A DNA stretch of 33,411 bases from an uncultured Candidatus Saccharibacteria bacterium. GTDB lineage: Bacteria > Patescibacteriota > Minisyncoccia > Minisyncoccales > RBG-13-42-11. The position numbers and the translations under genes are program-made. Shown here piece after piece: positions 16,009 to 17,016 of this stretch. Each line of letters begins with the position of its first letter. The first letter of the stretch is position 1. The DNA is taken from the NCBI GenBank assembly GCA_964630295.1, contig CAZVTU010000001.1:1-33411 (forward strand), written 5' to 3'. The notes under the pieces were generated by a model, which saw only the letters and a list, made by a program, of their open reading frames with translations, had not been told where the DNA came from and did no database searches.

Positions 16009-16458
16009 ATGAAGATTATAATTAGAACTAAAAATTTAAAACTAACTTCCGCTTTAAGACAATATCTTAAAGAAAAAATAAATTCTCTTGATAAATTTGC
16101 GAAAATTTTCCAAGAGAAAGAAAAATATTTTAATGGTTTCTATGGGAAAGGAAAACCACGAGTGGAGGCGTGGGTAGAAATTAGTAAGACTACACAACAT
16201 CATCAGAAAGGTCCCCATTTCAGGGCAGAAATTCAGATGCGCTTACCAAGGAAAAGCCTAAGAGCAACTGCTAAAGAAAAAAATTTAAAATTAGCCATCG
16301 TTCAAATTAAAGATGAGTTACAAAGACAATTAAAACAATATAAGAACAAATTGGAATCGTTAACTAAAAGAAGACAAAGAACCCTAAAAAAAGAATTTCA
16401 TCTATCCCCCCAGGCCAGATTTTATCGAAAAGGAAGAATTAGAGAAGAAGGAATTTGA
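16009..16458 (+). CDS. hpf: Ribosome hibernation-promoting factor / RaiA family with a basic C-terminal tail
   Basis: MKIIIRTKNLKLTSALRQYLKEKINSLDKF is a typical HPF/YfiA N-terminus. 149 aa. I could not recognise the dimerisation domain of long HPFs in the tail. Confidence 0.8.
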   Translation: MKIIIRTKNLKLTSALRQYLKEKINSLDKFAKIFQEKEKYFNGFYGKGKPRVEAWVEISKTTQHHQKGPHFRAEIQMRLPRKSLRATAKEKNLKLAIVQIKDELQRQLKQYKNKLESLTKRRQRTLKKEFHLSPQARFYRKGRIREEGI

Positions 16459-16460
16459 TC

Positions 16461-16489
16461 TTTACAAGTTTTTTTAAAAATGTTAAAAA
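16461..16489 (+). promoter_or_regulatory. Possible promoter for the polyamine operon (TTTACA-17-TAAAAA with a TGn extended -10)
   Basis: Hexamers and spacing read from the sequence. The AT-rich context makes false positives likely. Confidence 0.3.
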
Positions 16490-16509
16490 GATAAAAGATA
16501 TTTTTACCG

Positions 16510-16606
16510 GTTAATCACTTTTTGTTTTACTCTTTGTTTTTTCCCGATTGTTATCGGGATTAGCTATAGAAAAGCATTAAATGCTTTTCTAAGGTAAGTG
16601 ATTAAC
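16510..16606 (+). promoter_or_regulatory. Structured 5' leader (three-way junction), candidate cis-regulatory RNA or riboswitch upstream of speD
   Basis: An 11-bp closing stem, GTTAATCACTT (16510-16520) with AAGTGATTAAC (16596-16606). It encloses hairpin TCCCGAT-TGTT-ATCGGGA (16542-16559) and hairpin/palindrome TAGAAAAGCATT-A-AATGCTTTTCTA (16567-16591). It ends 8 nt before the ATG. Confidence 0.45.
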
Positions 16607-16614
16607 TTAAAATT

Positions 16615-17016
16615 ATGTTTCAAAAAACAAAGAGATCCATCCAATGGGTCATAGAAAACAGAAAAAGAAAATATTCTGGCATTCATCTAATAGCCGAATT
16701 TTGGTTTGGAAAAATTATTGAAAATTCAGAAGAACTTAAAAAAATTTTAATCGAAGCTGTAAAAGAAGCAAACAATACTCCTTTAAAAGTTGCAATTCAC
16801 AAGTTTCAACCCCAGGGAATCACTGGGATTGTTTTATTAGCAGAATCTCATATTGCTATTCATACTTGGCCAGAATTTAACTACACAGCTATTGATATTT
16901 ATACTTGTGGTGATAAATCTAATCCCGAGAGAGCCTTAGAATATCTAAAAAAAGAACTTCAACCTCAGAAAGTTGAAATTAAAAAATTAAAAAGAGGTAA
17001 AATAAATACTCAATGA
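16615..17016 (+). CDS. speD: S-adenosylmethionine decarboxylase proenzyme (pyruvoyl-dependent, small bacterial/archaeal class)
   Basis: GIVLLAESHIAIHTWPE contains the self-cleavage E-S site. Also IDIYTCG. 133 aa. Confidence 0.9.
   Translation: MFQKTKRSIQWVIENRKRKYSGIHLIAEFWFGKIIENSEELKKILIEAVKEANNTPLKVAIHKFQPQGITGIVLLAESHIAIHTWPEFNYTAIDIYTCGDKSNPERALEYLKKELQPQKVEIKKLKRGKINTQ

Follow-up and report, generated by a model that had tools for sequence, protein, structure and literature searches.

A structured RNA leader that extends into the speD coding sequence in one order of Patescibacteria, a candidate riboswitch of the polyamine pathway

In one order of ultra-small Patescibacteria (Nealsonbacteria/Paceibacterota), the gene encoding the AdoMet decarboxylase homolog SpeD is preceded by an RNA leader whose structure runs across the start codon into the coding sequence. 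Comparison of 66 copies supports a conserved, structured, sense-strand RNA leader that is tied specifically to speD. We give about an even chance to the proposal that this leader is a new cis-acting translational OFF element, an H-type pseudoknot that would hide the speD start and would most likely act as a riboswitch for a polyamine or for decarboxylated SAM (dcSAM). The leader was analyzed in the window, which denotes the whole stretch of 33,411 nucleotides studied here; all positions given without a locus name refer to it.

Fold of the speD Leader

The first-pass annotation had described a three-way-junction leader upstream of speD, built from a perfect 11-bp closing helix, two perfect hairpins and a 21-nt U-rich linker (16521-16541). 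Reading the sequence directly, we found all of these elements at the positions given for them. The closing helix P1 is formed by GTTAATCACTT and AAGTGATTAAC without a mismatch, hairpin 1 (P2) consists of a 7-bp stem with the loop TGTT, and hairpin 2 (P3) is a perfect 12-1-12 palindrome (Table 1). The minimum free energy structure obtained with RNAfold for 16496-16614 is exactly this three-way junction (-37.1 kcal/mol). The expectation that three perfect helices would be unlikely by chance was borne out, as 200 dinucleotide shuffles of the same segment yielded -16.7 +/- 2.8 kcal/mol and none of them reached the value of the leader (z = -7.2). For the longer segment 16459-16640, the fold gave z = -4.95. 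The reverse strand is equally foldable (z = -7.6), and consequently folding alone cannot pick the strand.

Two features had been overlooked. A repeat finder detected a perfect complementarity of 13 nt (repeat I23) between the linker at 16530-16542 (CTCTTTGTTTTTT) and 16622-16634, which corresponds to speD codons 3-7; within this region the linker sequence CUCUUUGUUUU is exactly complementary to AAAACAAAGAG, which is invariant. Since this pairing, termed S2, crosses P1, it represents either a pseudoknot or an alternative helix. The second feature is a hairpin within the open reading frame (P4). The U-rich linker, which had been taken for a mere spacer, is the most conserved part of the leader and pairs with the start of the reading frame. 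Similarly, P1 does end 8 nt before the speD ATG as had been noted for the whole element, but the element continues for approximately 36 nt into the coding sequence.

Table 1: Positions of the predicted promoter, the leader elements and the speD reading frame in the window.
Feature	Position	Strand	Description and basis
Predicted speD-operon promoter	16461-16489	+	-35 TTTACA 16461-16466, 17-nt spacer, extended -10 TGtTAAAAA (TG 16481-16482; hexamer 16484-16489)
Predicted transcript start	~16495-16498	+	Deduced from the promoter sequence
P1, 5' strand GUUAAUCACUU	16510-16520	+	Perfect 11 bp with 16596-16606; covariation in 66 homologs
L1, U-rich loop UUUGUUUUA	16521-16529	+	Reads UUUUUGUUUUA with two U of the P1 top
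S2a, proposed pseudoknot 5' strand CUCUUUGUUUUU	16530-16541	+	Perfect complement of S2b; near-invariant in homologs; 16542 can give a 13th pair
P2 hairpin, 7 bp, loop UGUU	16542-16559	+	Variable decoration; hairpin here in most, not all, homologs; sequence unconserved
P3 hairpin	16563-16595	+	GCU/GGU closing pairs and 11-bp stem of palindrome 16567-16591; variable decoration
GGUAAG box, joint of P3 to P1 3' strand	16593-16598	+	Conserved in most homologs
P1, 3' strand AAGUGAUUAAC	16596-16606	+	As for the 5' strand of P1
L3, A-rich single strand bearing the speD AUG (16615-16617)	16607-16621	+	Loop lengths and composition in 66 homologs
S2b, proposed pseudoknot 3' strand AAAAAACAAAGAG	16622-16634	+	speD codons 3-7 (Q K T K R); frozen synonymous sites
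P4 hairpin GAUCCAU-CCA-AUGGGUC	16634-16650	+	speD codons 7-12 (R S I Q W V); 90% of cells paired in 66 homologs
speD ORF, 133 aa, pyruvoyl AdoMet decarboxylase family	16615-17016	+	PF02675 at 1.4e-37, domain from residue 24; first gene of the polyamine operon

In the model, P3 can stack on P1. In most homologs, the six nucleotides that precede the GCG of the P1 3' strand end in (G/A/U)GUAA or GAUAA(A). The box in the window, read at 16590-16600 as CUAAGGUAAGU, is the same as the eukaryotic 5' splice-site consensus, which is almost certainly a coincidence.

Many orthologous loci show the same layout as the predicted promoter (TTTACA/TTGACA-17-TGnTAnAAA), at a distance of 19-48 nt upstream of P1. 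Elsewhere the motif directly follows the stop codon of the upstream gene hpf, and there the leader is probably co-transcribed with hpf. A scan for terminators found none between 16459 and 16614, and no U-tract follows P1, P2 or P3. Inside speD, a terminator-like hairpin with a T-run (CCCAGGGAATCACTGGG ATTGTTTTAT) is present at 16811-16837, where the conserved codons for PQGITGIV are located; it is probably due to chance or codon-driven.

Distribution of the Motif

SpeD homologs with 58-72% identity were found in approximately half of 61 relatives. The region around their start codons shares one order of elements, beginning with P1 (gttaaYcgc ... gcgRttaac), whose 5' strand is followed by the U-run, the invariant CTCTTTGTTTTT, a variable insert, GGTAAG and the P1 3' strand. 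After approximately 10 nt comes the ATG, followed by two to three codons, the invariant AAAACAAAGAG and the hairpin GATCCAT-tca-ATGGGTC. Fifteen leaders were aligned with MAFFT (A1), and the alignment served to build a covariance model (R1) that did not include S2. Searches with R1 covered 401 genomes of the order and detected the motif in 65, representing 50 of 245 genera; each genome has a single copy, except that a duplicated speD is accompanied by two. No true match was obtained in a phylum-wide sample of 400 genomes, nor outside the order in a class-wide sample of 400. One weak class-wide match (L127) was rejected as spurious, as it comprises neither speD nor the motif sequence.

The association with speD is tight, with 65 of the 66 aligned copies overlapping the start of a SpeD homolog; for the remaining copy (L081), SpeD was located just downstream by tblastn. 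The gene following speD is speE in 30 loci and a BpsA-like gene in 21 loci. The 119-nt element occurs as one copy in the 542-kb assembly that contains the window, and a repeat or mobile element was rejected on this basis. The 11-mer has four other copies in unrelated, apparently coding contexts, which were taken as chance.

Exact-pattern matches in public genomes were all derived from MAGs. Where a lineage was named, they were labelled Candidatus Nealsonbacteria, Paceibacterota, Parcubacteria, Patescibacteria or Saccharibacteria, and in one case Humimicrobiaceae. This last match (L104, 7856-8000 of DATKUR010000006.1, labelled Candidatus Humimicrobiaceae) is cut at its 5' end and could reflect mis-binning or horizontal transfer. 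Two genomes carry two copies of motif and speD, namely, G023 (C1:314292-314455 and C2:49510-49673) and G197 (C72 and C90). In G023 the two leaders are near-identical but the SpeD proteins are distinct, at 72% and 66% identity to that of the window, suggesting a recent duplication or a strain mixture.

In one further locus (L011, G012:C2:139220-139283) the whole 5' part of the motif is lost, and speD starts approximately 30 nt after hpf. This locus keeps AAAACAAAGAG, and its P4 region is decayed (peptide KTKRLIQRV), a pattern that would fit a relaxation of constraint once the partner strand had been lost.

Covariation and Strand

Pairing was evaluated in an alignment of 66 sequences (A3). As A3 had been fitted to P1 and P4, the pair counts were repeated on the structure-blind alignment A1. 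For P1, 96.7% of the cells are paired in A3 and 9 of the 11 pairs are changed on both sides; the respective values in A1 are 94.5% and 8 of 11. P4 is paired in 90.2% of the cells of A3, with pair 326-347 occurring as A-U (49), G-C (10), G.U (3) and U-A (2), and pair 327-346 as U.G (40) and U-A (18). Sliding the partners in A3 by one to three columns reduced pairing to 40-55%.

S2 is near-invariant, with 92.6% of the cells paired in A3 and 97.8% in A1, where a shift by one column lowers the value to 56%. Its pairing rests on complementarity and on one covarying position, pair 29-324 of A3, which is U-A in 56 sequences, U.G in 4 and C-G in 3, with one mismatch (C.A in L067). The three C-G compensations (L065, L069 and L073) combine an exchange of AGA (Arg) for GGG (Gly) in speD with a change from U to C in the 5' UTR partner. 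An Arg-to-Gly exchange that is matched by a change in the 5' UTR indicates that the RNA pairing is preserved and not the residue.

On the opposite strand the frequent G.U pairs would read A.C, which identifies the sense RNA of speD as the functional molecule. Covariation in related speD leaders, which the first-pass annotation had suggested as a check, was thus obtained for P1 and P4, whereas the inner hairpins are variable in sequence and sometimes missing. Two general hallmarks of riboswitches were found for the leader, a structured 5' region with covarying helices and conserved unpaired nucleotides, and a steady association with the genes of one pathway.

Conserved Core and Overlap with the Coding Sequence

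The three-way junction is common but dispensable, since P2 and P3 are variable or absent. S2a and GGUAAG are separated by an insert of 0-182 nt, which contains two hairpins in 46 of the 66 homologs and zero, one, three or four in the others. The stem sequence of P3 is different in every ortholog. Two minimal forms, L023 (87 nt) and L060 (108 nt), have neither P2 nor P3 and show the layout of classical H-type pseudoknots. In L023, the dimensions are 8 bp for S1, 7 nt for L1, 9-10 bp for S2, 3 nt for L2 and 17 nt for L3 including the AUG. Such natural variants of 87-108 nt are ready constructs for probing and crystallography.

The conserved core consists of P1, L1, S2, L3 with the AUG, and P4. 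L1 begins with 5-8 U straight after P1 in all 66 homologs and has a length of 6-13 nt; L3 comprises 13-20 nt with 46% A. The AUG is located two to three codons before S2b in all homologs but L020, where the distance is six codons. The leader fold described initially is thus present, belongs to the sense strand and is tied to speD, but the junction that gave it its name is not its conserved core.

The start of speD is under RNA constraint, not peptide constraint. In a codon alignment of 64 SpeD ORFs, the residues encoded here use practically one codon each: AAA for K (59/59), ACA for T (62/62), AAG for K (64/64) and TCC for S (53/56). The relative synonymous entropy is 0.08 at codons 4-8 compared to 0.71 at 64 conserved positions elsewhere in speD. 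P4 stays paired while its peptide varies (SIQWV, SKTWA, SILWN and SDLRV), and in L070 the stem persists despite loss of the Trp codon. An in-frame insertion of 51 nt in L020 falls exactly within the P4 loop and leaves both halves of the stem intact. In approximately 75 SpeD homologs from other orders of the class, which lack the motif, the alignment starts at residue 15-23; the N-terminal extension thus occurs only together with the RNA. This overlap represents a clean case of an RNA structure shaping a protein N terminus.

Comparison with Known Systems

The earlier reading had failed to recognize a known riboswitch class, and a scan with the Rfam covariance models, covering the window and 20 homologous loci, likewise gave no match. 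Rfam 15 was used at gathering thresholds on the whole window, at E up to 10 over 16400-16700 and at E up to 5 over the 20 homologous loci; no family recurred at the motif, and only scattered chance matches (RsaF, Clostridium-PBP and others) were obtained. None of the three scans matched a SAM family, and RF00521 and RF01826 were matched neither at E up to 10 over 16400-16700 nor in the homologs. Consequently, the leader is not SAM-I or one of its spermidine variants, SAM-II/V, or the ldcC, speF or potC motif. We found no description in the literature of a speD leader RNA in Patescibacteria. We rate it as a new family of riboswitch-like translational pseudoknot leader, with an unusual overlap with the coding sequence and unusually good comparative support.

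In architecture, the leader may be compared with a group of pseudoknotted riboswitches. SAM-II, SAM-V (RF00521 and RF01826) and preQ1-II are H-type pseudoknots, formed when the loop of a hairpin pairs with a 3' tail carrying the ribosome-binding region. In riboswitches of this type, a U-rich loop 1 lies as base triples in the major groove of helix 2, and the ligand stabilizes the knot and blocks initiation; telomerase-type pseudoknots likewise contain U.A-U base triples. The perfect complementarity of S2 is present in the speD leader, which would have the same H-type topology if P1 and S2 form together. In contrast to these classes, it is much larger with long variable inserts, its helix 2 involves coding sequence downstream of the AUG and not the Shine-Dalgarno region, and the associated gene consumes SAM and does not make it.

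In function, the leader may be compared with sensors of polyamines. To our knowledge, one natural class of polyamine riboswitch has been validated so far (SAM-I variants, 2023), and we know of no dcSAM sensor. This spermidine riboswitch, a variant of the SAM-I aptamer, acts as an OFF switch before speE, speB, speD and ldcC in Firmicutes (Salvail, Balaji, Roth and Breaker 2023, PMC10853860). It is likewise a cis-acting leader at polyamine-synthesis genes, and its OFF logic toward the end product is the one proposed here. However, it combines a SAM-I four-way junction with an intrinsic terminator, whereas the speD leader shows the association with polyamine genes but neither a SAM-I-type aptamer (RF00162) nor a terminator platform; instead it carries a putative pseudoknot over the start codon and coding sequence and is confined to one order of Patescibacteria.

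The ldcC motif (PMC5737381), the speF leader and the potC motif, candidate RNAs in Rfam, are also conserved structured 5' UTRs at genes for polyamine decarboxylases or transporters, but they differ in host phylum and architecture. Feedback at the 5' end is further found in other systems. The MAGDIS uORF of eukaryotic AdoMetDC and SpeFL of E. coli are arrest or sensor peptides. The 5' UTR of S. pombe spe2, which encodes AdoMetDC, binds spermidine and thereby controls translation (PMC6961545). In all three, polyamines or ornithine feed back on the translation of AdoMetDC or ornithine decarboxylase, in a way comparable to that proposed for the speD leader. They are, however, eukaryotic or peptide-based and share neither sequence nor structure with it, and in the speD leader the constraint is on the RNA and not on a peptide.

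Proposed Mechanism and Alternatives

A riboswitch candidate for control by a polyamine or by dcSAM/SAM remains the leading reading of these comparisons. In the proposed structure, P1 would close a loop starting with the U-run L1 and S2a, and S2a would pair with S2b, thereby placing the AUG in the third loop between P1 and S2. P4 would continue directly from S2, and P2 and P3 would be variable inserts of the second loop. Once pseudoknot and P4 have formed, the start codon and its surroundings, from about -19 to +36, would be helical or boxed in. The 30S subunit could then not load, and speD as well as the translationally coupled aminopropyltransferase genes would be shut off. A small molecule of the pathway would stabilize this fold, resulting in an OFF riboswitch. 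The most plausible ligands would be the end-product polyamine, spermidine or the product of the operon, or dcSAM; these are the most logical effectors in view of the biosynthetic pathway concerned and of the spermidine OFF riboswitches already known. Polyamines stabilize RNA tertiary folds non-specifically, and a response to polyamines need therefore not mean a specific aptamer.

Whether P1 and S2 coexist bears directly on this proposal. Under a nested energy model, the fold with P1 (-39.2 kcal/mol) and the fold with S2 (-39.7 kcal/mol) are isoenergetic and thus could be alternatives and not a simultaneous pseudoknot. Simultaneous formation is favoured by the fact that P1 and S2 (-11.5 and -12.6 kcal/mol, respectively, as isolated duplexes) share no nucleotides and that the loop lengths fit an H-type knot. 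Judging from the geometry of such knots, L1 would lie in the major groove of S2 and form U.A-U triples with the A-rich S2b, which would explain why S2 is invariant instead of covarying. The contrast between an invariant, A-U-rich S2 and a freely covarying P1, together with the obligatory U-run, suggests base triples or a ligand pocket. A triplex is not the sole reading, as AAACAAA in S2b is also able to form an antiparallel helix with UUUUUGUUU, the long form of L1. We infer that P1 and S2 form at the same time, that a triplex is present, that translation is repressed, and that a ligand exists and which one it is.

The strict conservation of S2 might also be explained by a protein that binds the same fold and controls speD translation, such as a pathway enzyme that regulates its own synthesis, a repressor dedicated to RNA binding, or ribosomal protein S1 bound to the U-rich tract. 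Ribosomal-protein leaders and others act by protein binding, and the invariance of the 11-bp S2 and the U-run in sequence, beyond pairing, is typical of sequence-specific recognition, here by a protein or the ribosome. However, base triples or a ligand pocket explain this invariance equally, no candidate regulator gene accompanies the motif, which has hpf upstream and aminopropyltransferases downstream as neighbours, and these genomes of approximately 0.5 Mb carry few regulators; we consider protein binding unlikely. We are similarly sceptical of a pseudoknot that works independently of a ligand, as a constitutive damper, an mRNA stabilizer, or a sensor of temperature or bulk cations (Mg2+ or total polyamine charge) without a specific pocket. 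No recognizable aptamer family was matched, conditions near the physiological range would be enough for the A-U-rich S2 (-12.6 kcal/mol) to melt or form, and Mg2+ and polyamines are generally known to stabilize pseudoknots and triplexes. Yet the order-wide invariance of approximately 25 nt, paired or unpaired, and of the GGUAAG box exceeds the need of a simple thermometer or damper, and a leader found solely on the first gene of a biosynthetic operon usually points to feedback control.

Two further explanations would shift the function away from the RNA fold. The nascent peptide M-x-x-KTKRSIQWV, which lies N-terminal to the Pfam catalytic domain and is strongly conserved, might act as a polyamine-responsive arrest or sensor peptide like the MAGDIS uORF or SpeFL, with the RNA helices being secondary; polyamine-sensing nascent peptides are known for polyamine genes. 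In this case synonymous sites should be free, but they are frozen beyond any demand of the peptide, and the amino-acid changes track RNA pairing: the Arg-to-Gly exchanges coincide with compensating changes in the upstream non-coding strand, P4 remains paired while its peptide changes, and the peptide accommodates an insertion of 17 residues that leaves the RNA stem intact. A sensor peptide is thus quite improbable. We find it hardly credible that the palindromes serve as a DNA operator for a dimeric repressor or that the hairpins are the hpf terminator. The perfect palindrome at 16567-16591, which had been put forward as a protein operator, and the equal folding of the reverse strand would speak for an operator. 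However, no conserved palindrome is found at a fixed position relative to the promoter: the P3 sequence is unique to this genome and unconserved in all 65 orthologous leaders, which have unrelated hairpins or none, and the G.U pairs reveal selection on one RNA strand. As a terminator, either hairpin would lack a U-tract, the terminator scan of the leader was negative, and the conserved predicted promoter upstream of P1 would place the hairpins inside the speD transcript.

Within the riboswitch reading, the leader might represent a second, structurally unrelated riboswitch class of the polyamine pathway, for spermidine or a branched polyamine, or the first dcSAM sensor, in each case as a triple-helix pseudoknot located partly in coding sequence; we regard this more far-reaching assignment as possible rather than probable. 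If true, an RNA would have imposed on SpeD, in an entire order of Patescibacteria, a conserved N-terminal extension of approximately 12 residues. Association of a different fold with these genes would demonstrate convergent RNA solutions to polyamine homeostasis. The leader would also count as one of the earliest lineage-specific regulatory RNAs to be described from the candidate phyla radiation, a group with tiny genomes, few protein regulators and almost unstudied physiology.

Genomic Context

The assembly carrying the window comprises 542 kb with 34% G+C and is approximately 92% complete. Downstream of the leader, speD is followed by genes for a BpsA-like aminopropyltransferase, a spermidine synthase and a protein of the saccharopine-dehydrogenase fold. 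The BpsA-like gene (PF01861, 17013-18164) encodes an N-terminal region of approximately 160 aa without a Pfam match. In related genomes this gene and speE alternate as the gene after speD, and the bacteria look mesophilic.

Some SpeD homologs are neofunctionalized arginine or ornithine decarboxylases (PMC10407285). A single SpeD homolog was found in this assembly, where it adjoins two aminopropyltransferase genes, and both observations argue that the window SpeD is probably a true AdoMetDC rather than an arginine or ornithine decarboxylase. In another genome, a second, distant SpeD homolog (32% identity) is encoded just upstream of the leader (G056:C1:72648-72842) and may be a neofunctionalized arginine or ornithine decarboxylase of the kind described in PMC10407285.

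The gene upstream of the leader in the window encodes the ribosome hibernation factor Hpf (PF02482, 16009-16458), and hpf directly precedes the speD leader in at least 25 of the 66 copies. In some loci the leader begins no more than 25 nt after the hpf stop codon, with no promoter between. This arrangement suggests that, in loci without an intervening promoter, the genes for ribosome hibernation and polyamine synthesis may be co-transcribed.
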